From sequence record NC_004928.1: DNA of 64,000 bases. One strand, given 5' to 3'. The stretch is from Escherichia phage RB69. The translations under genes were made by a program, and so were the position numbers. Below are positions 3,665 through 47,261 of the stretch, piece by piece; position 1 is the stretch's first letter, and each line of letters starts with the position of its first letter. Under the pieces are notes generated by a model. That model did not search any database, was not told the DNA's origin, and saw only the letters and a list, made by a program, of their open reading frames with translations.

Positions 3665-5483
3665 AGGACATCCATTCTTTACGAAGTTCTGAATCATCAC
3701 CCATCAACATTTCAAAGAGTTCTTTCCAATTTTCAGGAAGTTTAACTACGTCGTACACAGGGTTCTGAATCATTTTACGATATTCTGACTTTTCAAGGGA
3801 GCCTAATCCCTTGATGTATCGAATACTATGCTTAGGCAGTGTATCTTTAGCTTCTTCATACTCAGCTACAGTATAAAACCATTTTTGAGTTTTGCCAATT
3901 TGTGCAATAATTACAGGCGTTTTAACAAAGCGAATACGTCCTTGTTCAAACAATTCAGGCCAATTACTAAAGAAAGCAAGCAAAGCCGGATAAATACTTC
4001 CAAGGCCGTCATGATCGGCATCGGTCATAATTGCAATATTACGATAGTTCGTATTCTCTGCCTTTTCACCAAGAATAAGACCTGTGATAGCACAGATATC
4101 AAAGAGCTCTTTGTTCTTCATCATATCAGCATATGACATACCCCAGCTATTCATCACCTTACCACGTAATGGGAATCCGCCGTGTAGTTCACGGTCACGA
4201 ACATCAATGAGATATCCAATTGCCGAATCACCTTCTGTTAAGAACAATGTCGTATCTGCATCTTTACCGCATTGGTTAGCTTTAATATGCTTATGAACCT
4301 TAGCTTTAGTTGCCTTTTTAGCTGCTTTAGTTTCTGCAGCCTTTTCTGCTGCCAATTTACGAGCTAATGCTGCTTCAACAATAGGCATAATCAAGGCTTC
4401 GTTTTTAAGAAGTGCCTGAGCAATTTTCTTAGCATCTAATTGGATATGATTACGAATATCACCATACGTTGACGTTAAACGTTCTTTAGTCTGAGAATCA
4501 AAACGCATGTTGCTCATATCTCTAATAAACATCAACATTGTGAGACATTCTTTAACACGAGCTTTAGTGACTTCAATACCCTTATATTTCTTTTTAATAC
4601 CAGGCAAAAGATGTTCGCAGATATCATCCATTACACATTCAACATGATGACCACCATTTTTAGTATGGATGTTATTCACATAAGTTAAATGACGGAAGCC
4701 ATCTGGTGATGTTGTGAATGCTATAGAGACTTTATCATTTTCTTGAATGATGTTATCTTCGCCAAATTGTTTAGCAAATCGTTTAAAATTACCATCAACC
4801 TTTTTACCATTAAATGTGAACTTGATATCAGGATAAACGACTGCCAATGTTTGAAGTCGGTCTAAAGTAATATCTAAATAAATTTGAGATAAATTATGCT
4901 CTTCAAATGAAGTGAAATCAGGAGTGAAGATTACTTTAGTTCCTTTACCTTTAGATTTCTTAGAAGACCATGATTTGTTTTCCATTCCGTTTGAACAGTT
5001 AACAGTGATTTCATTTTCGCCATCTGACGTGATGCCTGTAAACAACGTAGAGAAGATATTAGTTAAACTACTCCCGACGCCGTTCATACCACCGGTCTTG
5101 CGTTCAGAGTCATCGCCAAAGTTACCACCAGCCTTTGGAATAGTCCAGGCTGCTACAGGCCCAGGAATTTGTTCACCCGTTTGGTCGGTAACTAAACCTT
5201 GAGGAATACCACGTCCGTTATCTTCCACCGAAACTTGATTATTTTTAATTTGCACATCAATTTTATTTGCAAACTTAAATGATGTACGAATAGCTTCATC
5301 AACCGAGTTGTCAATAATCTCATCGATTAATTTAACCAGACCAAGGAACATTTCAACTGGTGAATAATTACCAACCAAAAACGGCTCGTGGGCTTCTTTA
5401 GCAGAAAGAACCAATATACATACCATACGGTTTCTTAATAATGGTTCTACATCTGACAATACCCTAATTTCATTTTTAATCAT
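3663..5483 (-). CDS. 39: DNA topoisomerase II large (ATPase) subunit, genes 39 and 60 fused
   Basis: 606-aa ORF, GyrB-like ATPase; length equals T4 gp39 plus gp60, so no split gene 60. Confidence 0.85.
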   Translation of the reverse strand: MIKNEIRVLSDVEPLLRNRMVCILVLSAKEAHEPFLVGNYSPVEMFLGLVKLIDEIIDNSVDEAIRTSFKFANKIDVQIKNNQVSVEDNGRGIPQGLVTDQTGEQIPGPVAAWTIPKAGGNFGDDSERKTGGMNGVGSSLTNIFSTLFTGITSDGENEITVNCSNGMENKSWSSKKSKGKGTKVIFTPDFTSFEEHNLSQIYLDITLDRLQTLAVVYPDIKFTFNGKKVDGNFKRFAKQFGEDNIIQENDKVSIAFTTSPDGFRHLTYVNNIHTKNGGHHVECVMDDICEHLLPGIKKKYKGIEVTKARVKECLTMLMFIRDMSNMRFDSQTKERLTSTYGDIRNHIQLDAKKIAQALLKNEALIMPIVEAALARKLAAEKAAETKAAKKATKAKVHKHIKANQCGKDADTTLFLTEGDSAIGYLIDVRDRELHGGFPLRGKVMNSWGMSYADMMKNKELFDICAITGLILGEKAENTNYRNIAIMTDADHDGLGSIYPALLAFFSNWPELFEQGRIRFVKTPVIIAQIGKTQKWFYTVAEYEEAKDTLPKHSIRYIKGLGSLEKSEYRKMIQNPVYDVVKLPENWKELFEMLMGDDSELRKEWMS

Positions 5484-5505
5484 GTTGTCTCCTCGTTATG
5501 AAGGT

Positions 5506-5531
5506 ATTCTATCATCCGAAATCTAAAGCAA
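5506..5531 (-). promoter_or_regulatory. T4 middle-type promoter (MotA box TGCTTTA plus -10 TAGAAT)
   Basis: minus strand reads tttTGCTTTA, 12 nt, TAGAAT, then GAGGAG ribosome-binding site and the gene 39 ATG. Confidence 0.5.
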
Positions 5532-5548
5532 AAAGGGCCGAAGCCCTT
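5527..5548 (-). terminator. Intrinsic terminator with UUCG tetraloop
   Basis: agggc-cgaa-gccct hairpin followed by UUUUUGCUUU on the minus-strand RNA. Confidence 0.55.
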
Positions 5549-5969
5549 ATTTAAATTTAATTTTCTGAAGTGCATCAATTGCAGCCAAACGCCCTTGTTC
5601 ACTTTTAACTGTAATGACCACATCGCCTGATACGATCACCGAACCATCAACAAATTCTATAGAGCCTTTTTTGAAATCGACAGCTGTATCTGGTTCCGGA
5701 ACTTCTTCAAAGAATTTAAATTCTGCACCATAAAGCAGAATATCACCTTGCATACTAATGATTGTACGTCCAGGTCCATCGGTTTCAGCGGCAATCATTG
5801 AAACACCGTAACCAATCATCTCTTCTACAATAAAATCTCTTGATAATAAAACTGTATGCAGAGTAGTGTTAAGACGTTTACCAGTTGTATTAAGAATTCT
5901 CAAGAAATTATCTTCTTGACCTTTGATAATACGATATTTCTTACCAACTTCAAAACCTTTAAAAGCCAT
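5547..5969 (-). CDS. hypothetical protein (size and position compatible with T4 goF)
   Basis: 140-aa ORF upstream of gene 39. Confidence 0.45.
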   Translation of the reverse strand: MAFKGFEVGKKYRIIKGQEDNFLRILNTTGKRLNTTLHTVLLSRDFIVEEMIGYGVSMIAAETDGPGRTIISMQGDILLYGAEFKFFEEVPEPDTAVDFKKGSIEFVDGSVIVSGDVVITVKSEQGRLAAIDALQKIKFK

Positions 5970-7862: not shown

Positions 7863-8318
7863 TTAAGCTTTACGAGGAGACACATAGCGAGTGATTTCAG
7901 ATTCTTTAACAACTCGGAAGTCACCTAAGAATACGATATTGTATAACTTTTCACCATCTTCAACCCATTGGTCGCTAATGAAGCCACACATGGTATCAGT
8001 TGTGCTTGGATAACCGTATTCGTCGATGTAATCAAATTCTTTATCGGTAATAAATTCAACACCTTTGCAAAGGGCCCATTTAAACTGTACATTAGGTTCA
8101 GTAGAAGCAAAATGAGCGCTCACAGGAGTTTCCAAAAATTTAGGACTTACGTAAGCGTACCGAGTTTCAGTTTTCCCAGAACTAGGAATGATTCGAACTT
8201 TAACTTCTTTAACACGACCAGTACCATTAGTACGAAGTCCTACCACTTCAACTAGACGACCTGCAGCTTTAGAACGAGATGCAGTTGATACACGCTTAAT
8301 TTCACCAATAGTAATCAT
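7863..8318 (-). CDS. hypothetical protein, tandem paralogue B
   Basis: 151 aa; paralogous to 7434..7853. Confidence 0.55.
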   Translation of the reverse strand: MITIGEIKRVSTASRSKAAGRLVEVVGLRTNGTGRVKEVKVRIIPSSGKTETRYAYVSPKFLETPVSAHFASTEPNVQFKWALCKGVEFITDKEFDYIDEYGYPSTTDTMCGFISDQWVEDGEKLYNIVFLGDFRVVKESEITRYVSPRKA

Positions 8319-8344
8319 AATTTTTCTCTCTTTGTTGTTAAGAT

Positions 8345-8376
8345 TTATACTCCATCCGTCCTTGGATGTACAACAT
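8345..8376 (-). promoter_or_regulatory. early promoter cassette, degenerate copy of the tccaaccatccttgg family
   Basis: minus strand TTGTACA, 17 nt, TATAAAT. Confidence 0.4.
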
Positions 8377-8473
8377 TAATTAAGGATATTAACCACAGCA
8401 CTACGTGGAACTACACTAAAATCACCTGCATGAACAACGTTCAGAAGTTCAACAACCGTCTTCAATCCACTGA

Positions 8474-8872
8474 TCAGTTACCCATCCACTCACTGGACCT
8501 GCGAAACGGACGTCGAATTGAAACAGCTTTACACAACAAATCAGTAGGCTCAATAGGCTTAATCAGAGTACCGTATATACAAGCGATATCCATATCAATA
8601 CAGATGTCTTTAACGGGTTCTACTTCTTCAATCAACAGTTCAAAGTCTGTGCTTGGAAGGGCGGTAGTAGAAATTGTACCATATGAATTTTTAATTTCTA
8701 AGAATAACCAAGGGCCTTCAGCTTGTTTGATGAAGTTAACAATAGTGAAACTATTACCTTGAGTGGCGCCTAAAATTTCACAAAACTTTTCATAAGCTCG
8801 CACTGAAGCACCGTACCAGTTAATTTGTTTTTCGTCTTTCAGGATGTAAGTAGCCGTAGTATTGATATTCAT
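8474..8872 (-). CDS. hypothetical protein
   Basis: 132-aa ORF. Confidence 0.5.
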   Translation of the reverse strand: MNINTTATYILKDEKQINWYGASVRAYEKFCEILGATQGNSFTIVNFIKQAEGPWLFLEIKNSYGTISTTALPSTDFELLIEEVEPVKDICIDMDIACIYGTLIKPIEPTDLLCKAVSIRRPFRRSSEWMGN

Positions 8873-8890
8873 AATGTTTTCCTGTTTGGT

Positions 8891-8938
8891 ATAAGATAGA
8901 AAGATTATACTCCAACCATCCTTGGTTGTAAACTGTTT
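8891..8938. repeat. about 48-bp direct repeat, copy 1 (second copy at 50964..51010)
   Basis: taagatagaaagattatactccaaccatccttggttgtaaactgtttt read by eye at both sites. Confidence 0.6.
8904..8933 (-). promoter_or_regulatory. early promoter (GTTTACA, 17 nt, TATAAT) with spacer hairpin
   Basis: minus strand GTTTACAACCAAGGATGGTTGGAGTATAAT; spacer holds caacca-agga-tggttg. Confidence 0.55.
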
Positions 8939-9615
8939 TATCGCTGTTTTACACTTAACGGGTCAGGATTCTCAGGGACATCTTCAAGGCCAAGCGCATA
9001 ACGCTGAGCATATTTTAACATCAAAATATCTTTAGCACAATCATGAATACTATCATGGGCAACGAATCCTTTTAGCGTACCCATCGGTAATGGACACATA
9101 CTTAATCCTCGTGTCAACGAGTAAGCTTCGATTGCTGTACGAATATCGCGTTGAGCCCAGAATTTAACCGGTTCTAATTTATCGGTATCAATCTCTGGTT
9201 CAAGAACACCTTCATCACGATAGAGGTCACGAATCAAATCGACCAAGATCGGGAAGTCAAAGCTCATACCACGGCACCACATCTGTGATTTCCATTGGTC
9301 AACTTTATTAGCTCGACAATAATCTAAAAAGATTTTAATGCCTTCAAGCGTAGTGACATCGTCTTCAGACGGGGCCAAGTTTTTACGTGCTTCAGCCGAT
9401 TGTTCTTTCCACCATTTCATAGTGGATTTAGCGAAAACTCGCTTCCCTTTCTGAGAAGCTAAATTAAATTTAATTCGCTTACCTCGTTGAACAAGTTCTT
9501 CAAATGATTCAACAACTTCAGGGTCGGAATTATATGCAATAACCGCAAGGTCAATAACAGCCGCTTTTGATGTATTGCCGAATGTTTCAAAATCTATAAT
9601 AACATCAGTGCTCAT
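8938..9615 (-). CDS. dexA: exonuclease A (DnaQ-like 3-prime to 5-prime exonuclease)
   Basis: 225 aa; N-terminal IIDFETFG exonuclease motif; T4 dexA size and position. Confidence 0.8.
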   Translation of the reverse strand: MSTDVIIDFETFGNTSKAAVIDLAVIAYNSDPEVVESFEELVQRGKRIKFNLASQKGKRVFAKSTMKWWKEQSAEARKNLAPSEDDVTTLEGIKIFLDYCRANKVDQWKSQMWCRGMSFDFPILVDLIRDLYRDEGVLEPEIDTDKLEPVKFWAQRDIRTAIEAYSLTRGLSMCPLPMGTLKGFVAHDSIHDCAKDILMLKYAQRYALGLEDVPENPDPLSVKQR

Positions 9616-9624
9616 AATTTTCTC

Positions 9625-10938
9625 TCAAATAAAATGGACGTCAAAACGACCACGAGTTGTGCCGACATACAATAACTGTTTAGCTAATTCTGAATCAGCA
9701 TAATGGATACACGGTGTATAAACAAAGGCCGTGTCAACAGACATACCCTGGGCCTTATGGAAGGTTGATACTGGTAGTGCCTTCACCTTAGTGAACATAC
9801 GTTTAGCATCCCAGAATTCGCTCCATGGAGCTTTACCACCTTTATTCCAGAATTTGTATGTTTCTGCGGTCTTAGCCAAAAACAAATTGAATTTATAAAG
9901 CTCTTCTTCGGAAGAAATAACCTTTATATCCTCGCGGATGTATTCTTCATCATCCCCATATGTTTCTACTGTAAGATTCCAATATCGTATCATATACTCG
10001 CCCGAAACACCACGTGCTTTAACGAATGTAGACGTTTCTACAGCATCTCGAATACGAACGAATTGCCCGTTATTGAAAAGCATTTCGGTCATATTTTTAC
10101 CATCTAGCTTGTACGTCTTAGTAAATGGCTCTTGTAGAACAATGACTTCGTCTTTAATAAATGGTTTTTCTGTTTCAAGAAGTTTTCGGCGAATAATTGA
10201 ATTTAACTTGTCCACTGACTTATTTGTGAATGCCATCATCCGATTTTCGAAAAGGTCTTCAGGAGTTTTAACGACATTAAAATAATTCATCATATATGAT
10301 TTAAGGTCGGTATATCCATGAACACCATGCCCGTCAACTACTTTATCATAAATCCATTTGCCATTACGAATATCGGTCGCAACATCAATAATTGGTGCAT
10401 TGCTACGTTTAACTTCTGTAAGGTCGCATTGCACGAAGTCTTTGTGAGTGAAGAAAGGACTTAGATATGCAGTGGATTCGCCTGGGTCTACCGGTCGAAT
10501 CTGACATCGGTCGCCAATTCCAATTACTGTGCACCATTTAGGGATACTAGCTAACATTATTTTAAACAGAGAACGGTCGCACATTGACGCTTCATCAAAT
10601 AACAGTACACGACACAAGGCTAAGTCGGGAACCTTTTTCTGTTCAAACAATACGTTTTCTTCGTATGTAGTTGGGTTGATTTTAAGAATGCTATGAATAG
10701 TCGATGCTTCTTGACCAGCAAGTTTGCTTAGAACCTTTTTAGCGGCATGTGTTGGTGCTGCTAAAATAATACCTGATTCTCCAGAAGAAATAAGAGCTTC
10801 AACGATAAATCTAGTAAGGGTTGTTTTACCTGTACCGGCAGGCCCATTAATAGTTACGTGATGTTTCTTTTCTTTAATAGCTTTCATAACAACGTTGAAG
10901 GCGTTTTTCTGGCCTTCAGTCAAATCATCAAATGTCAT
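9625..10938 (-). CDS. dda: Dda DNA helicase (superfamily 1)
   Basis: 437 aa; Walker A GPAGTGKTT; near-colinear with the T4 Dda sequence as I recall it. Confidence 0.9.
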   Translation of the reverse strand: MTFDDLTEGQKNAFNVVMKAIKEKKHHVTINGPAGTGKTTLTRFIVEALISSGESGIILAAPTHAAKKVLSKLAGQEASTIHSILKINPTTYEENVLFEQKKVPDLALCRVLLFDEASMCDRSLFKIMLASIPKWCTVIGIGDRCQIRPVDPGESTAYLSPFFTHKDFVQCDLTEVKRSNAPIIDVATDIRNGKWIYDKVVDGHGVHGYTDLKSYMMNYFNVVKTPEDLFENRMMAFTNKSVDKLNSIIRRKLLETEKPFIKDEVIVLQEPFTKTYKLDGKNMTEMLFNNGQFVRIRDAVETSTFVKARGVSGEYMIRYWNLTVETYGDDEEYIREDIKVISSEEELYKFNLFLAKTAETYKFWNKGGKAPWSEFWDAKRMFTKVKALPVSTFHKAQGMSVDTAFVYTPCIHYADSELAKQLLYVGTTRGRFDVHFI

Positions 10939-24046: not shown

Positions 24047-24595
24047 TTAACGAGCCCATTTGATGATTTCTGTAATCAAATCATTACGTTCGCTTGCATT
24101 AAATCCTATAACTTTGTTAGCACCATCATGATTAAGTAATTGATACGTTTGGATTTCGTTATGAATTGCAAACTCTTCAAAATGTGAAATGACTGTATTA
24201 AAACCGAATGAAGACAAAGTAATAAGGTCGTCTTCAAAACTTTCAGTCATTTCGTTACGTGTTAAAATAATTGTGAACACATCATGGTTTTGGCAAAGAC
24301 GAACATAATCCTGTTCATAAACGTCAAGAACCGAGTCCGCATCTTGTCGAATACGTCCATAAACCCAGTTACTAATATATCCACGATCTAACAGATAAAT
24401 CTTAGTAGGGTCTAAATAATTCAACATCGTTTCGAAACAGCCAACTTCATTTCGAGACTTAACATCAAAACGTCCATCAACTGTTCGTTTAGGGAAATCA
24501 ATCTTTACATATCTTTCACTAATTTCCATTATGTCATTAATGAAAGTTGTTTTACCAGCATTATCCGGGCCATCTACTAAAATAATTTTAGCCAT
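24047..24595 (-). CDS. P-loop NTPase, small kinase-like protein
   Basis: 182 aa; Walker A GPDNAGKTT at the N-terminus; sits where T4 has beta-glucosyltransferase. Confidence 0.5.
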   Translation of the reverse strand: MAKIILVDGPDNAGKTTFINDIMEISERYVKIDFPKRTVDGRFDVKSRNEVGCFETMLNYLDPTKIYLLDRGYISNWVYGRIRQDADSVLDVYEQDYVRLCQNHDVFTIILTRNEMTESFEDDLITLSSFGFNTVISHFEEFAIHNEIQTYQLLNHDGANKVIGFNASERNDLITEIIKWAR

Positions 24596-24596
24596 T

Positions 24597-24947
24597 TTAT
24601 TCCTCGATTACGACATCTTCATATTTAGGTATATTATACGGCGAAGAAATTAAAGCGTTAAAGTAGATGAACTCACCAAGACCTGGATGGAATACTTCTT
24701 CAGGATTTTCGAAATATTGAATCTTCGGACGTCCTTTAAGAATTTGATAGTACTCAGTTTTAGTTGGTTTAAAAATTCGAATCAGCGCTTCTTCAGGATA
24801 CTTATTTCTGTCGAAGCTATTATTTGGATCGGTTATATAAAGCGGTTGGCCTAATTGAATTGCACATTCAACCACTTGTTCAAAACGATAGCACGGGTCA
24901 CTAATTCGAAATGGATGAAAAATACCATCTAGATGAATAGGAGCCAA
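24597..24947 (-). CDS. hypothetical protein
   Basis: 116-aa ORF. Confidence 0.45.
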   Translation of the reverse strand: MAPIHLDGIFHPFRISDPCYRFEQVVECAIQLGQPLYITDPNNSFDRNKYPEEALIRIFKPTKTEYYQILKGRPKIQYFENPEEVFHPGLGEFIYFNALISSPYNIPKYEDVVIEE

Positions 24948-24948
24948 A

Positions 24949-25497
24949 TCACACTACAAGACGCTGCATGATGGAAGGACGTATAACTTTCTGCGTTACG
25001 ATAATCTTATTACCATCTGCACCTGCGTTAACCAGCACTTCTTTTTGACGTTCATTCAACACAGTAGTTTGAAGTGAACGATTAACCGACAACATATCGG
25101 TTTTTAAGAATTCGTCAATATAAAAACGTGGTTTATTAGGGTCTGCAGTGATATTGAAAATGAATTCCACATCAAAAGCGCCGTCATATCCAGTGATATC
25201 TGTGATTAGAAAATCACAATCATAATAAGCAATTAATGAATCAACCACAAATTCATTTTCAGACCAGAAATATTTACGAGTGTTATACGCGTTATCTTTA
25301 TACCATAATGGAACAAACTTAAATTCCGGGAAAAGACGTTCGCATTCTTTAATATCAGATGCATTACGTGGATATGTAATCACATCACCTGGATTAGCAC
25401 GGTGCAAATGAAGTTGGAAGTTGCCATCCTTAAGGATAGAATACTGTCCAGTTTCATAAGACCGCATACTCAAGATAGGTACGCGGAAAATAGCCAT
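24949..25497 (-). CDS. hypothetical protein
   Basis: 182-aa ORF. Confidence 0.45.
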   Translation of the reverse strand: MAIFRVPILSMRSYETGQYSILKDGNFQLHLHRANPGDVITYPRNASDIKECERLFPEFKFVPLWYKDNAYNTRKYFWSENEFVVDSLIAYYDCDFLITDITGYDGAFDVEFIFNITADPNKPRFYIDEFLKTDMLSVNRSLQTTVLNERQKEVLVNAGADGNKIIVTQKVIRPSIMQRLVV

Positions 25498-26213
25498 TAG
25501 TCAAGGAATCCTTTAACATAATCAAAATCACGTTCAAACACATGGGCACTTACCATGGTATGAGTATAATCACCAACTTCTACACCACATTCGTTAGCGA
25601 TATAATGAAGTAATTTTCCTTGGAGATAAAAATCCAACTGCATAACAACAGCACAGTTCTGGGAACGCATATGGCAGTGGGTATAAAGCTTACCATCACG
25701 AATATAATAAGTCACTGAGTCAGTACATGGATATTCAAGCGTTTCGTCCGAATCAAGCAAAGCCTGATCAGAACTTTCTAGAATTTGGAACACAACTCTT
25801 CGGGAGTTAGGCTTCTCTTTAAGTTCTTTTAGAAGAGCTGGTAATTGGGCCGCAATGCGAGGACCGTAGAAAGTGTTGAAGTTTGCAGGCAAAGCGTCTG
25901 ATTTAGGTTTAGAAATAAATTTAGCAACGTTAGGATATGCCTTAAACGCTTCTTCTGCATCAGTACCACCAGAAATCATAAACTTCCAGAAGTCTTCGGC
26001 ATATTCATAAGAGATGCGGTTAATACGTGGGTCGGTCATTTTGAATGATGATGGAGTGTCAACAACTACTGTCATAGACCCAATTTCATTACAACGTCCA
26101 ATACGAGAATCAGTTACGAATTCCGGGTTTTCTAAAATTTCACGATTGACTGCTTTAAATGCGGTTTGAAAATCTGCGGCTTTGATATATTTCATTGTGT
26201 TATGTTTTCCCAT
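25497..26213 (-). CDS. 42: deoxypyrimidine-nucleotide hydroxymethylase (gp42-like, thymidylate-synthase fold), divergent
   Basis: 238 aa; catalytic region EYPCTDSVTYYIRDGKLYTHCHMRSQN aligns with T4 gp42 FMCTNTVQYLIRD...MRSND. Confidence 0.6.
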   Translation of the reverse strand: MGKHNTMKYIKAADFQTAFKAVNREILENPEFVTDSRIGRCNEIGSMTVVVDTPSSFKMTDPRINRISYEYAEDFWKFMISGGTDAEEAFKAYPNVAKFISKPKSDALPANFNTFYGPRIAAQLPALLKELKEKPNSRRVVFQILESSDQALLDSDETLEYPCTDSVTYYIRDGKLYTHCHMRSQNCAVVMQLDFYLQGKLLHYIANECGVEVGDYTHTMVSAHVFERDFDYVKGFLD

Positions 26214-26255: not shown

Positions 26256-26495
26256 TTATTTGAATTTCTTAGCGATGTTGATATAACGTAAAGCTTCAGC
26301 ATCGATATTTCCAAGAACACTATGAAGAAATGCATCAGCGTAGTATTCCAATTGAACAGGTTCTTTAATCACTTTAGCCGCTTTAGTTTCAAACAGGCCC
26401 ATCAGGGCCTTTTTAAGAATTTGTTCGTTGCTGTTAATTTTCATAGTCAAAATCTCTTCATTAAGTTGGTGGTTAAAAGTTTTTCTAGAAATCAT
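26256..26495 (-). CDS. hypothetical protein
   Basis: 79-aa ORF. Confidence 0.4.
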   Translation of the reverse strand: MISRKTFNHQLNEEILTMKINSNEQILKKALMGLFETKAAKVIKEPVQLEYYADAFLHSVLGNIDAEALRYINIAKKFK

Positions 26496-27661
26496 TCTGG
26501 GTACCTCAAAGCGTCATCAGAGTTAGTTACATCAATAATAGATATAGAATTTTCTGATAACCCATTTTTAGATAACTGACGTTTATAATATCTTTCACAA
26601 TATGTACACGTCGTCCCGCAGATTTCATTAGCACAATCGAAATCTGGATGTCTGAACCACCTTTTTTCTAAAAAGCCATCTAACAAAGAGGTTTCAATAT
26701 TTACTGTATGTGAAAACTCAGTTTCGTTTTCAAGAGTGAAAATAGTCTCTAAAGGCTTCCACAGTTCTAACAAATTACCTTCAAACTTTTCAGAAGCGTA
26801 TGCTTCAAGAACTTTCAAAATGTAGTCTGTGCTACCTGTACGTCCTGAAACTTTGAATTGAGTGATACCAATATCATTATAAAGTTTCAAATCTTGAGGA
26901 CGAACAAAACGAGTTCTCAACCAGTTAAATGGGTCTGTATCACGAGCTTTAATACAGTGCTGCATAGGATATCCGTTTAAGGATTTAGCATCATCAGCTG
27001 TAACATCAGTACTATGGAAAATATAGCAAGAGTCACGATAGCTACAATGTGTTGTATACCCTTTACCAGCATTAGAACAGAACTCATTTACAAGAACTTC
27101 AAATATTATATTGTTCTTATTGCAAAACTCTGCTGCACGCTTCAGGAAAGAAACTGAACGGTTTTTATGAATTCCACAGCAGACCTTTTTGATATTATAT
27201 TGGTCATGCAAGTATTTGATTTGAGTTACAGCATCGACATGTAGAATTGTTGAAACTTCAATCTCAATGTCTTTATTGACTTCACGAACAATTTCCATAA
27301 CAACAGGGTTAGCGATAGTAATACGCCATACGCCTATTGACCAAAGATACTGAACATAATCCTGAATAGCTTTCTTCTTCCACTCAACTAGTTCTCTTTT
27401 TGAACCAGGATTTATCGTGTTGAGTGTATAGTTAAAGCAAATACCTAATTCGTTACAACGTTTAACGTAATCTTCTAACATCTTTTTGTCAACGTCAGGA
27501 AGCCTAAAATCAGGTCTGGCTGCTACAAAAGCCATTTCTCTTGTAGAGCCGTATACTTCGTTTATCAAGCTATTAGGATAAGTTTTATTGAGCTCTACGA
27601 TTTTATCAAGAAGAGCTAAATCAAAATTCGTTCCGATTTTAAAAGTATTCATTTTTTGCAT
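26492..27661 (-). CDS. U32-family-like protein with C-terminal Cys cluster
   Basis: 389 aa; N-terminal pattern EVYGS...FVAARPDF...LNT and cysteine-rich segments; weak, motif-level only. Confidence 0.4.
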   Translation of the reverse strand: MQKMNTFKIGTNFDLALLDKIVELNKTYPNSLINEVYGSTREMAFVAARPDFRLPDVDKKMLEDYVKRCNELGICFNYTLNTINPGSKRELVEWKKKAIQDYVQYLWSIGVWRITIANPVVMEIVREVNKDIEIEVSTILHVDAVTQIKYLHDQYNIKKVCCGIHKNRSVSFLKRAAEFCNKNNIIFEVLVNEFCSNAGKGYTTHCSYRDSCYIFHSTDVTADDAKSLNGYPMQHCIKARDTDPFNWLRTRFVRPQDLKLYNDIGITQFKVSGRTGSTDYILKVLEAYASEKFEGNLLELWKPLETIFTLENETEFSHTVNIETSLLDGFLEKRWFRHPDFDCANEICGTTCTYCERYYKRQLSKNGLSENSISIIDVTNSDDALRYPE

Positions 27662-27707: not shown

Positions 27708-28109
27708 TTATAGATTCGGTTTATATGATTTAAATGTTTCGAATTCGCCTTTATTCATAAGAGCTTTGAATTCGTCAGGACGCATAGCTTTGTCGTCGAT
27801 AATCCAATCATATACTGGTTTATGTGTTAGCAAATTATGGTACTTCAAGCCAATGTTTGCCAAGTTCTGAATCAGACTTGGGAGAATGTCAATTGCTATA
27901 CGTCCAGGACCTACTGACTTCATACCGCGAGCAGTGTAAAGCGTTATGGTATGCCCTGCATCATACAGAGCATTAATGGCAGACACCATTTCGACGTCTG
28001 GTTTGAAGTTCACGTAATCACGATTGTTATTCCACTCTGTTATACAATCATCGACATCAAAACAAAGATTAAGCATGTTTTCTACATGGTGCATTAGATT
28101 CGTTCCCAT
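27708..28109 (-). CDS. HAD-superfamily phosphatase (small, KdsC-like)
   Basis: 133 aa; HAD motif I FDVDDCIT; true start may be Met12 near 28076. Confidence 0.55.
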   Translation of the reverse strand: MGTNLMHHVENMLNLCFDVDDCITEWNNNRDYVNFKPDVEMVSAINALYDAGHTITLYTARGMKSVGPGRIAIDILPSLIQNLANIGLKYHNLLTHKPVYDWIIDDKAMRPDEFKALMNKGEFETFKSYKPNL

Positions 28110-29134
28110 TGATGAGTGATATCGCCACCGATTGGACGATAAGAAACACCAGTTTCTTTATCGGTTAGTACCCATTTACCAGGATTTTTTGTAATCAGAG
28201 TAGCCGTTACAGGTTCTGCTACGTCATAACTAATAGAGCCGTCTTGAAGTACACGGCCCATGTTACGTAATTGCTTAGTCAGAAGTTCCATACCTTTATA
28301 ATACGCGGCTACCGCTTTAAGTGGATTATTCTTGAAATAACCACCTAATGCAATCCAGATAATTGCTACAGCCAAATGATGATACTCGTTAAACGAACTC
28401 ATCTTTCCATATTTGTAAACTAATGGATTGATGTTAATAGTCACATTACAAGTTGTTTCGTCAATAGTAAACTGTCCCCAGGTCGGATTAGCGTTGAATT
28501 CATCATAACCTGAAACGGCATAAAGCACTTTAGCTTCATCGTACAATTTTGGTCCGTAAATCTTGGTTTCGCCAAAATATCCACGAGGGTCGATAAACTT
28601 GACTTCGCCGTTATCAGTAATCATAGTATTACTGAAGTTCGGGTCACCGTGAATAACAGAGTACTGTCCCTGAGAACGGTTATGATAACGAATAAGGTGT
28701 TCTAAAGCTTGTTTCAGCATTGGCTTCAGACGTCCAATCTTAGTGTAGTTCACATGTGTGATTTTACCAAATGAATCAATCAATGGTTGAATGCTTTCAC
28801 AACGATCAATAACTTTCGTATAGAATTCTTTAGTGAAATCACGACGAACAGTTTCAGGACTTACAAAATAAGTGTCTGTGCTGAATTTCAGTGCATCTAA
28901 AATTGCATCAACAATTTGTGGACGAGCAAGACTTGATTTGGATTTAATATATTCAAATGCCGGCTTACCTTTAATGCGTTCCATTTCAAAGTTATTTTCA
29001 TTAACAGAAACTAACTGAGGAACTGAATCTGATTTCACTTTAAGATACCATGAAATCTCATCTTTCTGAAGAGCTCGACCATGTTCGGTTAATGCGAATT
29101 TAGTTACAGTTTCTTCACCAATTTCGAACTGCAT
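28094..29134 (-). CDS. sugar kinase of the aminoglycoside-phosphotransferase / choline-kinase fold
   Basis: catalytic loop HGDPNFSN; ORF track begins at a GTG (29191); ATG at Met20 used here; start uncertain. Confidence 0.55.
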   Translation of the reverse strand: MQFEIGEETVTKFALTEHGRALQKDEISWYLKVKSDSVPQLVSVNENNFEMERIKGKPAFEYIKSKSSLARPQIVDAILDALKFSTDTYFVSPETVRRDFTKEFYTKVIDRCESIQPLIDSFGKITHVNYTKIGRLKPMLKQALEHLIRYHNRSQGQYSVIHGDPNFSNTMITDNGEVKFIDPRGYFGETKIYGPKLYDEAKVLYAVSGYDEFNANPTWGQFTIDETTCNVTININPLVYKYGKMSSFNEYHHLAVAIIWIALGGYFKNNPLKAVAAYYKGMELLTKQLRNMGRVLQDGSISYDVAEPVTATLITKNPGKWVLTDKETGVSYRPIGGDITHQWERI

Positions 29135-29780
29135 TAAAACTACGATTAAGTTCACGAACTTCATGAGCTTTTTCAAGTTTAGGCATATCACCTAAATCAA
29201 TTAGATTCATAAGCTCTGATTTATTGAATGCACTGCCGTAAAGGAATTCTACGAAATCACGTCCTTTGCAGTATTCGTGAATTTCCTCATCAGTAGAACC
29301 CATGTAGAATTCCCAGTCTTTGAACTGATAAATTCCTACAACGTTACCGCCTGTTGAACCTACGTTAGTGATATTTTCACCATCGAAATTATATCGACAT
29401 TCATCACCCTTAACATAGATTGCGTTAACATTCCAAGACCATGAACCAAAATCAGGAATAATATCACACCAGTTAACAATTACGTTATGGCCATCTAAAT
29501 CTTTGTATAATTTAGCAAGAGCATAAGCAGAACCATACGCTTCATCAACTGTACGAATAGTCACATTGAACCCTTCTTGCTCACAATAAGCTCGAACAGT
29601 TTCAGCAAATTTTGAATGAACTACTACAATAATTTCATCTGCGCCAAGGTCAGAATAAATTGTATACAAATTGCTCAGAATAGTGTCTTGTTTATAGTTA
29701 ACAAGCACCTTAGGAATATGATGCGTTATTGGATACAAACGAGTTGCTAATCCAGCACCAAGAATAACAGCTTTTTTCAT
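29115..29780 (-). CDS. sugar-1-phosphate nucleotidyltransferase
   Basis: N-terminal AVILGAGLATRL motif; start at Met6 after GAGGA. Confidence 0.65.
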   Translation of the reverse strand: MKKAVILGAGLATRLYPITHHIPKVLVNYKQDTILSNLYTIYSDLGADEIIVVVHSKFAETVRAYCEQEGFNVTIRTVDEAYGSAYALAKLYKDLDGHNVIVNWCDIIPDFGSWSWNVNAIYVKGDECRYNFDGENITNVGSTGGNVVGIYQFKDWEFYMGSTDEEIHEYCKGRDFVEFLYGSAFNKSELMNLIDLGDMPKLEKAHEVRELNRSFNAVRNW

Positions 29781-29822
29781 GTTGAAGATCCTCATTGGTA
29801 AGTAGGTGTATTGTACACTATT

Positions 29823-29966
29823 CTAGTTAAAGCATTCATACTTTGCTTGTAGTCCAATCATAATCCATCCAATTACAAGTGTTGGAATCATTACTGGAGC
29901 CGTTAAGCTCCAGTAGATAGTCATGACAAGCATCAATAGTAAAAGTCCTATTGTTATTGCTTTCAT
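29823..29966 (-). CDS. small hydrophobic membrane protein
   Basis: 47 aa translated by hand (MKAITIGLLLLMLVMTIYWSL...); ATG overlaps the upstream TGA as ATGA. Confidence 0.35.
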   Translation of the reverse strand: MKAITIGLLLLMLVMTIYWSLTAPVMIPTLVIGWIMIGLQAKYECFN

Positions 29967-30598
29967 TGTTCGCCTCGTAACATAGCACCTAGTGCACCGC
30001 CTGGATGGAACTTAAGGAAGTCATTAGAGGTAAATCCACGTTCAGACGAAAGGTTGATAGCAAACGTATCGATAAGCGCTAACAACAATGTAGTGGACAT
30101 AGTCGGAGCCAGAGAATTCTCATCAACCTCTACCGCGATGCCTGTACAGAAAGAGTAATCAAAAAGGGCTTCATTTTCTTGTGGAATGTCTGGGTTACAA
30201 TGCAACAGAATCTGTTTGACGTTCGGTCGAATCATTTTAAGATGCTTAGCCACGCCTATCATTTCTTCAGTTTTACCAGAACGACTAATATGAATCAACA
30301 CGTCATTAGGCGCAATAAATCCTGCATCACCGTGAGAATAATGCCCAGTGTTCAAGTACATACTCGGGATACCGAGTGAAGCAAATGTCTCAGAAGCTTT
30401 AGTTGCAATATTAGCATTCTTACCAACACCTGTAATAATTACTCGGCTTTCATAATTACTAAGTCCCGGGCGTCGAAGAGTTTCTAGAATAGCATTATAA
30501 CGAGCAGGGTTTTGACTAATTACTTTGGCCATAGCGGCCAAAGAAGAAGCTTGTTTTATGATTGCGTCAATAGCGATAGTAATAGGAGTAGTTTTCAT
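29963..30598 (-). CDS. SIS-domain sugar-phosphate isomerase (arabinose-5-phosphate isomerase-like)
   Basis: 211 aa; SIS motifs VIITGVGKNANIATKASETF and HISRSGKTEE. Confidence 0.7.
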   Translation of the reverse strand: MKTTPITIAIDAIIKQASSLAAMAKVISQNPARYNAILETLRRPGLSNYESRVIITGVGKNANIATKASETFASLGIPSMYLNTGHYSHGDAGFIAPNDVLIHISRSGKTEEMIGVAKHLKMIRPNVKQILLHCNPDIPQENEALFDYSFCTGIAVEVDENSLAPTMSTTLLLALIDTFAINLSSERGFTSNDFLKFHPGGALGAMLRGEQ

Positions 30599-44976: not shown

Positions 44977-45447
44977 TTAATCATGTTTCCACACCCCATC
45001 GGTATTTGACCAAAGTCGCTGATTATCTGATCCTCGCCATAGCTTTTTGGTCGGAAGATTTTTCTCATACTTCCCATCAATAATAACATCAACATATTTA
45101 AGCATTTCTAGTTGTTTAATATCTTCAAACTTGTATCCTGTCCACAACCAAATGCTTTTATTGGGATAAAGATTTTTTACTGTTTGAGCAATGCAATGAA
45201 TAACATCTCGATTGTCAGGATAGAGAGGGTCACCTCCGGTTATAGTCAATCCTTCTATATAATCGTTATTCAAACATTCAATTAATTGTTCTAGTGTTTC
45301 ACCAGTGAATGGAACACCATTTCTAGCATTCCATGTTGATTTATTATAACACCCTTCACATTTATGCAAACAACCTGTAACGAAAAGAACGACCCTACAA
45401 CCAGGGCCATTCACAAAATCGCAAGGATAAAATCTATCATAATTCAT
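44977..45447 (-). CDS. nrdG: anaerobic ribonucleotide reductase activating protein NrdG (radical SAM)
   Basis: 156 aa; CLHKCEGC cluster. Confidence 0.85.
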   Translation of the reverse strand: MNYDRFYPCDFVNGPGCRVVLFVTGCLHKCEGCYNKSTWNARNGVPFTGETLEQLIECLNNDYIEGLTITGGDPLYPDNRDVIHCIAQTVKNLYPNKSIWLWTGYKFEDIKQLEMLKYVDVIIDGKYEKNLPTKKLWRGSDNQRLWSNTDGVWKHD

Positions 45448-47261
45448 TGGTGTTTAACCCTATGCATGATTTCTTTATTTTTACCGAGATTAAATCCGCG
45501 TTCGTTCGGATTTCCCAAATAACCGCATGTTCTTCTTATGGTGTTCATCTTTTTAGGATCAGTTTCTCCACAAATAGAACAAACAAATCCGGTTTCAGTA
45601 GGAGTCATTTCATGGGTACTTCCGCATGTAAAACATTTATCTACTGGCATATTAACACCAAAATAATCTAAATGTTGTGCAGCATAATCCCACACGGCCT
45701 CAAGACCTTTTAAGTTATTTTTCATATCAGGAAGTTCAACATAAGAAATGTGACCACCTGTCGCAATGAAATGATATGGCGCTTCACGAGAAATCTTTTC
45801 AAACGGAGTAATATTTTCTTCTACTGAAACATGGAAACTATTAGTGTACCAGCCTTTATCAGTAACATCCTTTACACTTCCATATTTTTCTGTATCAAGT
45901 TTACAGAAGCGATAACAAAGGTTTTCAGCAGGTGTAGAATACAAGCTAAAAGCAAACCCAGTTCTTTCAGTCCATTGTTTAAGAAGAGCATTCATTTTAG
46001 TTAAAATTTCTTGTCCAATATCACGACCGACAAGAATATTCAATTCGTGAATACCAATGTATCCTAGGGACACTGAACTTCTACCATTTTTAAATAACTC
46101 AATTATGTCATCATCAGGTTTAAGACGAACCCCGAATGCACCTTCTTGGTAAAGAATAGGAGCAACAGTAGCTTTAACTCCTTTTAAGGAACTAATTCTA
46201 CACATCAAAGCTTCAAAACACAGGTCCATTCGCTCATCGAACAATTCAGTAAATTTCTGTTCATTGAACTGTGTTCCAATATAAGAATCTAACGCAATAC
46301 GAGGAAGATTCAGTGTTACAACGCCAAGATTATTGCGTCCATCAAGAATTTCATTGCCAGTTGAATCTTTCCATATGCTCAAGAAACTACGGCAACCCAT
46401 TGGAGAAACAGGAACTGAAGAACCGGTAATAGCTTTATTATTCTTAACCGAAATAATGTCAGGATACATTCTTTTGCTTGCGCACTCTAACGCAAGTTGT
46501 TTAATATCATAGTTCGGATCATCTTTATAAAGATTAACACCTTCTTCAACAAACATAACAAGTTTAGGAAAAATAGGAGTTATTCCATCACGACCAAGAC
46601 CTTTAATGCGGTTTTTAAGAATTGCTTTCTGAATCATTCGTTCAGTCCAGTCAGTTCCCGTACCAAATGTAATTGTTACAAAAGGCGTTTGTCCGTTTGA
46701 ACTAAAGAGAGTATTTACTTCATATTCATAAGCTTGGAATGCATCGTATACGTCTTTTTCTGTTTTAGACTGGGCATAATTCAACGCATCAGCGATTTGC
46801 CATTTTTCTGCATCCTCAATATGTTTTGCATAGGTGCGTTTAACATAAGGAGAAAGTACTTTATCTACATTAGCAAAAGTCGTTCCGCCGTATTGATGGG
46901 AAGCAACCTGTGCAGTAATTTGTGCCATAATTGCAGTAGCAACGCCAATAGATTTAGGCGTTTCAATTTGAGCATTGCCTAATTTAAATCCATTCTCAAG
47001 CATCCCCTTTAAATCGACTAAACAGCAATTGGTAAACGGAAGAGCAGGAGAATAATCAATATCATGCATGTGAATGATTCCGCTTTCATGCGCATGCATA
47101 ATAAAAGACGGGACCATATTTTTGGCAATGTGCTTAGACACAATACCAGCCATAAGGTCCCGTTGAGTTGGAAAAACACGAGAATCTTTATTAGCATTCT
47201 CGTTCAAAAGATCTTTATTAGTTTTATAAATTAATCCTTCAATTTCTTTTTCAATTTTCAT
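45444..47261 (-). CDS. nrdD: anaerobic ribonucleoside-triphosphate reductase NrdD, uninterrupted
   Basis: 605 aa; glycyl-radical motif RRTCGYLG near the C-terminus; continuous ORF, no intron. Confidence 0.9.
   Translation of the reverse strand: MKIEKEIEGLIYKTNKDLLNENANKDSRVFPTQRDLMAGIVSKHIAKNMVPSFIMHAHESGIIHMHDIDYSPALPFTNCCLVDLKGMLENGFKLGNAQIETPKSIGVATAIMAQITAQVASHQYGGTTFANVDKVLSPYVKRTYAKHIEDAEKWQIADALNYAQSKTEKDVYDAFQAYEYEVNTLFSSNGQTPFVTITFGTGTDWTERMIQKAILKNRIKGLGRDGITPIFPKLVMFVEEGVNLYKDDPNYDIKQLALECASKRMYPDIISVKNNKAITGSSVPVSPMGCRSFLSIWKDSTGNEILDGRNNLGVVTLNLPRIALDSYIGTQFNEQKFTELFDERMDLCFEALMCRISSLKGVKATVAPILYQEGAFGVRLKPDDDIIELFKNGRSSVSLGYIGIHELNILVGRDIGQEILTKMNALLKQWTERTGFAFSLYSTPAENLCYRFCKLDTEKYGSVKDVTDKGWYTNSFHVSVEENITPFEKISREAPYHFIATGGHISYVELPDMKNNLKGLEAVWDYAAQHLDYFGVNMPVDKCFTCGSTHEMTPTETGFVCSICGETDPKKMNTIRRTCGYLGNPNERGFNLGKNKEIMHRVKHQ

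Follow-up and report, generated by a model that had tools for sequence, protein, structure and literature searches.

Among the described members of the U32 family, RlhA of Escherichia coli makes 5-hydroxycytidine in rRNA and TrhP makes 5-hydroxyuridine in tRNA, and both need prephenate and iron-sulfur (Fe-S) chemistry (PMC5727448, PMC6599085). Prephenate is the oxygen donor for UbiU/UbiV (PMC10990095), and these two proteins each bind a [4Fe-4S] cluster via four Cys of variable placement, deviating from the pattern CX6CX15CX3/4C (PMC6747719). Here we describe a U32 protein of Escherichia phage RB69, encoded in a stretch of 64,000 nucleotides (record NC_004928.1) that is called 'the window' throughout. 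Its open reading frame (ORF), RB69p050, consists of 389 codons plus stop and occupies exactly 26492..27661 on the minus strand; the plus-strand reading of this interval is closed by many stops. The 389-aa ORF reported there by the initial annotation is thus real, and its strand is minus. We propose, with somewhat more confidence than doubt, that the protein is a prephenate-dependent C5-hydroxylase of deoxycytidine monophosphate (dCMP), or of cytosine in DNA, which works without molecular oxygen (O2) and would be the anaerobic isozyme of a neighbouring 5-hydroxy-dCMP (5hodCMP) synthase.

The pathway in which the gene lies has been described by Lee et al. (PMC13326640), and our statements on that article refer to the portion of its text that was available. 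In RB69 DNA, cytidine is fully replaced by arabinosylated 5-hydroxycytosine (5hoC), not by hydroxymethylcytosine. A thymidylate synthase (TS) homologue makes 5hodCMP, not hydroxymethyl-dCMP, in RB69 (gp48), DLP3 and HY126; gp48 binds flavin and takes its oxygen from O2, as 18O2 labelling indicated. Synthesis of uridine diphosphate (UDP)-arabinose is credited to an isomerase, a bifunctional enzyme and a phosphatase, and the DNA of phages DLP3 and Maestro also carries arabinosyl-5hoC (all PMC13326640). The initial annotation had taken the neighbour of the U32 gene for a hydroxymethylase; this has to be revised, since the neighbour is an O2- and flavin-dependent 5hodCMP synthase and the DNA contains arabinosyl-5-hydroxycytosine. 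The U32 gene itself has received little attention. The available text of Lee et al. mentions U32-dependent RNA hydroxylation and does not tie it there to gp50; RB69p050 is listed elsewhere only for its 'homologs among peptidases' (PMC8056088), other earlier work on the phage does not mention it, and the GenBank record of HY126 names the gene 'hypothetical protein'. The gene and its family label are therefore already known, and the function proposed here is new to the literature covered (He et al. 2026 and Mahler et al. 2025 lie outside it).

The family call had been considered weak. A profile search against Peptidase_U32, which the initial annotation had suggested as a check, gave a significant match to Pfam PF01136 (E = 7.4e-11, 42.2 bits, curated gathering score 22.4), and profile-profile alignment (hhalign) to E. 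coli UbiU, TrhP and RlhA reached a probability of 96.2% with E = 2e-9. PHROG 5757 ('peptidase') covers the full length of the protein. The fold is a TIM barrel as in Mk0906 (PDB 5d88), a structure recovered by fold comparison only, a phmmer search of PDB sequences having given no match. At the level of profiles and fold, the assignment to the U32 superfamily is solid. The motif pattern that had been placed at the N-terminus was not found there, the PF01136 match being central (residues 97-289).

The Cys-rich segments noted at first, including a C-terminal cluster, proved more pronounced than stated, and the suggested check of their conservation was run: of 13 Cys in the protein, ten are invariant over 35 homologues with identity down to 46%, namely C161, C180, C195, C206, C212, C236 and the C-terminal C343-X4-C348-X3-C352-X2-C355. 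The Cys region came out misaligned when the protein and the four E. coli paralogues were put through plain MAFFT, and profile-profile alignment was used instead. In the latter, E161, C169 and C176 of RlhA pair with E188, C206 and C212 of the phage protein, and all three are invariant in the 35 homologues. These RlhA residues are essential by mutagenesis, and its C-terminal Cys are needed as well (PMC5727448). The invariant C195 and C236 could complete a four-Cys site with C206 and C212. Given the ten invariant Cys, the four-Cys binding of [4Fe-4S] in U32 enzymes and the need of RlhA for its C-terminal Cys, a reasonable reading is that the protein would have one U32-type cluster and a second, putative metal site at the C-terminal four Cys.

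Comparison with characterised enzymes shows both kinship and distance. RlhA (YdcP), which makes 5-hydroxycytidine at C2501 of 23S rRNA, has a U32 domain like the phage protein, the Glu and two Cys aligned above, C-terminal Cys, and a product, 5-hydroxycytosine, that corresponds to the base chemistry proposed here. It differs by its length of 653 aa, its DUF3656 domain, its ribosomal-precursor substrate and its canonical signature, with about 20% identity; in the 389-aa phage protein, Pfam finds PF01136 only and no DUF3656. TrhP (YegQ), also of the U32 family, performs a prephenate-dependent C5 hydroxylation of a pyrimidine, and together with the unrelated, O2-dependent TrhO, which yields the identical product, it follows the logic proposed for the U32 protein and the synthase. 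The differences lie in its substrate (U34 of tRNA), canonical signature, longer C-terminal region and length (453 aa), and in its partner, TrhO being of the rhodanese family whereas the phage partner is a flavin-binding TS homologue. The phage protein does not have the TrhP architecture: the signature is missing, identity is 18% and the C-terminal part is not alignable. UbiU and UbiV, with UbiT, hydroxylate ubiquinone independently of O2, each with a [4Fe-4S] cluster, and replace flavin monooxygenases in anaerobiosis; UbiV, like the phage protein, has no canonical signature and has its first Cys displaced. They differ in that the substrate is a lipid, the proteins form a heterodimer and the SCP2 protein UbiT is required. 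The UbiU equivalog model (NCBIfam NF047963) matched the phage protein at residues 60-161 only (18.4 bits, the cut-off being 440), and the annotated homologous stretch of phage Bas46 shows neither another U32 gene nor one for an SCP2 protein. Mk0906, from Methanopyrus kandleri, is 14% identical, has 247 aa and lacks the C-terminal four-Cys extension. Since membership tests for UbiU, RlhA and TrhP were all negative, the phage protein is, on these comparisons, not an orthologue of any characterised U32 member, and it keeps the core features of the family.

The synthase of RB69 (gp48), DLP3 (gp80) and HY126 is similar in another sense: its product, 5hodCMP, and the ensuing route through kinase, polymerase and arabinosyltransferase are those proposed for the U32 protein, and in the window its gene lies about 280 bp downstream, past a 79-aa ORF. 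Fold and cofactor are unrelated, O2 is needed, and the synthase occurs in phages of strict aerobes that have no U32. A test of the U32 protein for the TS fold was negative (it is a TIM barrel), the TS-fold gene being a separate ORF (25497..26213).

From the observed family, fold, conserved Glu and Cys, gene contexts and phyletic pattern we infer the substrate, oxygen donor, metal clusters and physiological role as follows. The C5 of a cytosine deoxynucleotide would be hydroxylated without O2, the substrate being most likely dCMP and less likely cytosine in DNA. The oxygen atom would come from prephenate, and one or two Cys-ligated metal clusters would take away two electrons. The resulting 5hodCMP would then join the route of the synthase product, that is, phosphorylation, incorporation into DNA and arabinosylation. 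Beside the adjacent O2- and flavin-dependent synthase, the coliphage would have in the U32 protein an anaerobic isozyme; phages of strict anaerobes would rely on U32 as their sole hydroxylase. Precedents for such pairs are UbiU/UbiV and UbiI/UbiH/UbiF, TrhP and TrhO, and, in the phage, NrdDG and NrdAB. The proposal is the simplest account of the U32 fold with its catalytic Glu and Cys, of a pathway that passes through a 5-hydroxy pyrimidine, of the adjacent O2-dependent enzyme, of phage-borne genes of the prephenate pathway that adjoin U32 elsewhere, and of the phyletic pattern given below. The initial annotation had expected extra redox chemistry on the base or sugar, beyond the classical T4 scheme. 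A redox or hydroxylase role outside that scheme is still the best reading; the neighbour already yields 5hodCMP, and the U32 protein therefore need not add an extra step, the evidence pointing instead to O2-independent C5 hydroxylation.

The distribution of the two genes was examined in 50,697 isolated phage genomes. The U32 gene was found in 220 of them (tblastn), and all genera seen were Enterobacterales or Shewanella. Identity to the protein of the window reaches at least 95% in about 150 phage records; for Straboviridae of Klebsiella, Serratia, Proteus, Yersinia, Edwardsiella, Providencia, Kosakonia, Erwinia and Shewanella it lies at 79-89%. The O2-dependent synthase was present in 372 phage records, including 57 of Acinetobacter and 20 of Rhizobium. 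Enterobacterial Mosigvirus-like phages have both genes. At the modification cluster of the Acinetobacter phages Maestro and DLP3 and of Pseudomonas phage PspYZU05, no U32 was found, with the phosphatase gene touching the synthase gene or standing immediately before it; the absence in Acinetobacter phages is established for the cluster regions and from the organism counts of the two tblastn searches, not for whole genomes. In PspYZU05 (4321-5702), a phosphatase-like gene stands directly before the synthase. As the DNA of DLP3 and Maestro has arabinosyl-5hoC with no U32 gene at the cluster position, the U32 protein is not needed for this product itself.

Outside isolated phages, about 280 homologues occur in metagenomes, many at 46-58% identity. 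A scan of viral contigs with a single sequence gave close relatives only, and an alignment-based scan was needed. Among 185,579 cellular species genomes, seven carry the subfamily, six of them metagenomic bins and the seventh a scaffold of a Phocaeicola faecalis isolate. Four of these carriers are typical anaerobes (Oscillospiraceae, Erysipelotrichales, Tannerella, Phocaeicola). By these counts the U32 subfamily is almost virus-restricted. Phages binned with anaerobes have U32 without the synthase, phages of aerobes have the synthase without U32, and many phages of facultative anaerobes have the two together; this pattern argues for the role of an anaerobic isozyme. Replication without O2 is expected of RB69, as the phage encodes NrdD and NrdG, a class III ribonucleotide reductase. 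Of 2298 phage records with a close NrdD, Acinetobacter was not among the ten commonest genera, despite at least 57 Acinetobacter Straboviridae in the collection, which hints that phages of aerobes have lost an O2-independent isozyme here as well.

We then considered 40 U32 loci outside Straboviridae, with neighbours classified by clustering, BLAST and Pfam/NCBIfam. A DNA glycosyltransferase like gp46:47 was found within 10 kb of U32 in 23 of the 40, and in two further loci a glycosyltransferase of the TET-associated type (TAGT-like) follows U32. A TS-fold gene was present in a single locus, within the roughly 10 kb covered on each side of U32, and it is a canonical thymidylate synthase (243 bits). 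Because glycosyltransferases are common and TS-fold genes rare in these loci, the distant phages are, as judged by gene content, phages with a U32 gene and a transferase predicted to need a hydroxylated base, with no known hydroxylase within reach. Recurrent neighbours are a MazG/dUTPase-like gene and a thymidylate kinase (TMPK)-like gene directly upstream of the glycosyltransferase-U32 pair; further ones are a dCMP deaminase overlapping U32, dUTPase/dCTP deaminase (DCD), NUDIX, 5'-nucleotidases and DnaE-type polymerases. By analogy, this layout may be read as a T4-style pathway in which the nucleotide is modified first and polymerised later, with U32 in place of a base-modifying enzyme of the gp42 type. 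The isomerase, kinase and phosphatase trio was found in only about one quarter of the 40 loci, and for this reason U32 is not tied to arabinose.

Some of these loci deserve a separate description. Four of them (L055-L058, for example L058:3044-7137) have a GP88-family gene, a fusion of guanylate kinase and S-adenosylmethionine (SAM)-dependent methyltransferase, a gene for a protein of about 267 aa and then U32; they come from bins of Tannerella, Woesearchaeota and BRC1 and from the Phocaeicola faecalis isolate. This four-gene set may be a pathway in which a nucleotide is hydroxylated and then methylated. In another (L060:5777-14179), U32 is flanked by a Gly_transf_sug glycosyltransferase, a glycosyltransferase of the TET-associated type (weak match), a dUTPase/dCTP-deaminase-like gene and a UDP-galactopyranose mutase, which recalls the galactofuranosyl-5hoC system of Rhizobium phage RL38J1 but with no TS homologue nearby. 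In a third case (L032:8695-9957), the HAD phosphatase and U32 are separated by an inserted IS605 OrfB/TnpB (Cas12f-like) gene; a 98-100% identical locus from an Oscillospiraceae bin (L053:9291-11140) has no TnpB at that position.

A link with prephenate was found in the same set. Enzymes of the shikimate pathway are encoded within 3.3 kb of U32 in 7 of the 40 loci, in three different gene contexts: a type Iβ fusion of 3-deoxy-D-arabino-heptulosonate 7-phosphate (DAHP) synthase and chorismate mutase, DAHP synthase alone, and a stand-alone chorismate mutase (Table 1). Chorismate mutase yields prephenate, the oxygen donor of UbiU/UbiV that TrhP and RlhA also require (PMC10990095, PMC6599085, PMC5727448). 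Close homologues of the fusion are nearly absent from the 50,697 isolated phage genomes, where one human faecal contig (43% identity) and ten weak matches (27-30%) in unannotated records were found; MT837090, the contig of this collection with the fusion, begins inside the fusion gene. That the DAHP-synthase-like genes are in fact 3-deoxy-D-manno-octulosonate 8-phosphate (KDO8P) synthases of a Kdo-type pathway was considered and is disfavoured, with NCBIfam scores of 114-221 bits for DAHP synthase versus 30-67; nor can this idea account for the stand-alone chorismate mutase. Taken more broadly, we consider it possible, with confidence falling a little short of doubt, that the virus-restricted clade represents the first O2-independent hydroxylase of DNA precursors. 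It would be fed by prephenate, act as the sole source of the 5-hydroxypyrimidine that is then glycosylated in phages of strict anaerobes, some of which would supply the oxygen donor with a DAHP synthase or chorismate mutase of their own, and serve as the anaerobic twin of the synthase in Mosigvirus-like coliphages.

Several observations weigh against C5 hydroxylation of dCMP by the U32 protein. The classical U32 signature, which we take to be E-x-F-x2-G-[SA]-[LIVM]-C-x4-G-x-C-x-[LIVM]-S (verified on the E. coli paralogues), was not found in the phage protein by a regular-expression search, which did find it in UbiU, RlhA and TrhP and not in UbiV. In the profile alignment, an 11-residue insertion that carries C195 breaks the signature region, and the phage spacing C195-X10-C206-X5-C212-X23-C236 differs from CX6CX15CX3/4C. 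No U32 enzyme has so far been reconstituted in vitro with direct hydroxylase activity (PMC10990095), the literature covered holds no biochemical or genetic test of the U32 protein, and in the available text of Lee et al. RB69p050 appears in a table only, as 'sugar or heterocycle reductase' (PMC13326640). The absence of TS homologues from the distant loci extends no further than the flanks given above, and host assignment from metagenomic bins is weak. The DAHP synthase could instead serve a sugar-acid pathway: in several loci it stands between a KdsD-like isomerase plus nucleotidyltransferase/kinase and a KdsC-like phosphatase. The fused chorismate mutase could be a regulatory relic. Finally, U32 is missing from Dhakaviruses of E. 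coli, dhabil among them, in which the synthase and arabinose genes are present; some phages of a facultative anaerobe, at least, can therefore do without the gene, and the phyletic pattern is one-directional. In dhabil (8088-9699), a TMPK-like gene of 178 aa lies between phosphatase and synthase.

Other explanations were weighed against the same evidence. The U32 protein might be a hydroxylase with another DNA or deoxynucleoside monophosphate (dNMP) target, such as dUMP (giving 5-hydroxy-dUMP), cytosine in DNA after replication, or a second, minor modification, and so would not duplicate the 5hodCMP synthase. We regard this as unlikely. Enzymes that produce dUMP are close to U32 in several distant loci, with a dCMP deaminase directly before it or dUTPase/DCD nearby; moreover, RlhA and TrhP act on polymers rather than mononucleotides, and the cellular-type loci pair U32 with the guanylate-kinase/SAM-methyltransferase fusion. 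Against this stand the complete replacement of RB69 cytidine by arabinosylated 5hoC, with no hydroxyuracil derivative mentioned in the available text (PMC13326640), and Straboviridae clusters that have no dedicated downstream enzyme for another product.

Action on the sugar, also raised by the initial annotation, appears rather unlikely. In this case the substrate would be arabinose phosphate or nucleotide diphosphate (NDP)-arabinose, and U32 a TIM-barrel oxidoreductase or isomerase-like enzyme, as might be thought from its place between the phosphatase and the base-modifying enzyme inside the block of sugar genes, and from some 10 distant loci where it directly follows isomerase, nucleotidyltransferase/kinase and HAD phosphatase. 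The TIM barrel is common to many sugar enzymes, and existing labels point the same way, 'putative enzyme involved in UDP-arabinose biosynthesis' in BASEL and that of Lee et al. cited above. Maestro and DLP3, however, combine the whole arabinose pathway and the arabinosylated product with a cluster that has no U32 gene at this position, and in HY126 UDP-arabinose is accounted for by AfhE and AfhF after the isomerase (PMC13326640). Most distant loci have no isomerase, kinase or phosphatase, yet many combine U32 with a glycosyltransferase and dNMP enzymes. No characterised U32 enzyme works on a sugar, and the neighbouring chorismate mutase would be left unexplained.

A role in RNA, with 5-hydroxyuridine in tRNA or 5-hydroxycytidine in rRNA of host or phage tuning translation and the position in the cluster being incidental, is improbable. 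T-even phages encode their own tRNAs, and no nucleic acid other than RNA is known as a substrate of U32 enzymes. The phage protein lacks the RNA-binding or accessory domains that RlhA (DUF3656) and TrhP have, E. coli already has TrhP, TrhO and RlhA, and the linkage to DNA glycosyltransferases and dNMP enzymes is kept across very distant phages. A 'collagenase'-type protease, as most GenBank records and the PHROG name would have it, is very improbable: the name stems from a historical family label, characterised U32 members are Fe-S hydroxylation factors, no catalytic protease residues have been defined for U32 (PMC5727448), and ten invariant cysteines and the genomic context suit redox chemistry.

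The cluster that surrounds the gene in the window is detailed in Table 1.

Table 1. Coordinates of the modification cluster and the anaerobic ribonucleotide reductase in the window, and of shikimate-pathway genes near U32 in distant loci
Feature	Position	Strand	Basis
Arabinose-5-phosphate (A5P) isomerase (SIS domain; RB69 gp55 homologue)	29963..30598	minus	Pfam SIS 41.9 bits and annotations
Bifunctional sugar-1-phosphate nucleotidyltransferase/arabinose-5-phosphate kinase (RB69 gp52:53, AfhE-like)	28094..29795	minus	Pfam NTP_transferase, weak kinase matches
HAD-like phosphatase (RB69 gp51/AfhF-like), directly upstream of U32	27708..28109	minus	Bas46 annotation, PMC13326640 (portion available)
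U32-family protein, RB69p050 homologue	26492..27661	minus	389-aa ORF; likely start M4 at 27652 (386 aa)
79-aa ORF overlapping the U32 stop (ATGA)	26256..26495	minus	No cysteines, no family match
Thymidylate-synthase homologue (RB69 gp48 homologue)	25497..26213	minus	Pfam PF00303 56.9 bits
DNA glycosyltransferase (RB69 gp46:47-like, arabinosyltransferase 1)	24597..25497	minus	Bas46 coding sequence, PMC13326640 (portion available)
Thymidylate-kinase-like nucleotide kinase (RB69 gp45 homologue)	24047..24595	minus	Bas46 annotation, PMC13326640 Table 1 (portion available)
nrdG (156 aa) and nrdD (605 aa), anaerobic class III ribonucleotide reductase	44977..47261	minus	ORFs; tblastn matches annotated as anaerobic ribonucleoside-triphosphate reductase, activating protein adjacent
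Type Iβ DAHP synthase-chorismate mutase fusion	L038:8332-9387, L033:8411-9433, L036:7302-8357, L035:9-971		
DAHP synthase alone	L023:9384-10130, L059:9145-9891		
Stand-alone chorismate mutase	L052:13321-13605		

The minus-strand order is A5P isomerase, kinase/nucleotidyltransferase, HAD phosphatase, U32, 79-aa ORF, TS homologue, glycosyltransferase and TMPK-like kinase; this co-directional block confirms that the U32 gene sits inside a cluster for base and sugar modification. The U32 protein is the most conserved of the cluster: its identity across genera is 82-89%, that of the synthase 73-82% and that of the kinase domain 39-69%. The adjacency of phosphatase and U32 recurs in distant viral loci. 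Of 16 Straboviridae loci, 7 have a recognisable counterpart of the 79-aa ORF after U32, at 43-59% identity; for its lack of Cys, of a family match and of wider occurrence, the ORF was rejected as an accessory subunit or electron carrier. The TMPK-like kinase has no Pfam match at E 0.01.

The window comes from a Mosigvirus, a T-even phage of E. coli. Its 6-kb stretch around the U32 ORF shares 98.4% identity with phages mobillu and O157 typing phages 3, 6 and 13. Identity is 98.2% for Bas46 'ChristianSchoenbein', whose TS homologue is 100% identical to that of the window, and no record of the phage collection reached 99%. Several genes differ from those of Bas46 by single bases. The bifunctional gene, a single coding sequence of 561 aa in Bas46, is split into 28094-29191 and 29115-29795 by a frameshift from a one-base insertion at 29126, with further one-base insertions at 29042/29045 and 29788; the glycosyltransferase, 299 aa in Bas46, is split into 24597-24947 and 24949-25497 by a one-base insertion at 24953. 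The splits of RB69 genes 46/47 and 52/53 are described as sequencing errors (PMC13326640). At 27652, a one-base homopolymer difference brings an upstream ATG (M1) into frame in the RB69 record only. Since Bas46 and the U32 homologues begin at M4, 'MNTFK', the true start is probably M4 and the first three codons (MQK) would be untranslated. Promoter and terminator scans gave results at chance level.

The known arabinosyl-5-hydroxycytosine pathway needs O2, yet the hosts of RB69-like phages are enterobacteria of the gut, and these phages encode an anaerobic ribonucleotide reductase. An O2-independent hydroxylation of dCMP by the U32 protein, if it holds, would explain how they maintain their DNA modification in anoxic places such as the gut, and with it their resistance to restriction and CRISPR; the efficacy of phage therapy there may then depend on the U32 gene. 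The proposal would also bear on how 'auxiliary' shikimate-pathway genes of phages are interpreted, and it would predict a large unexplored set of DNA hypermodifications based on 5-hydroxypyrimidines in phages of anaerobes. For the family, prephenate-dependent hydroxylation would extend from RNA and quinones to DNA building blocks, and U32 enzymes would gain a small soluble substrate, dCMP, for reconstitution in vitro.

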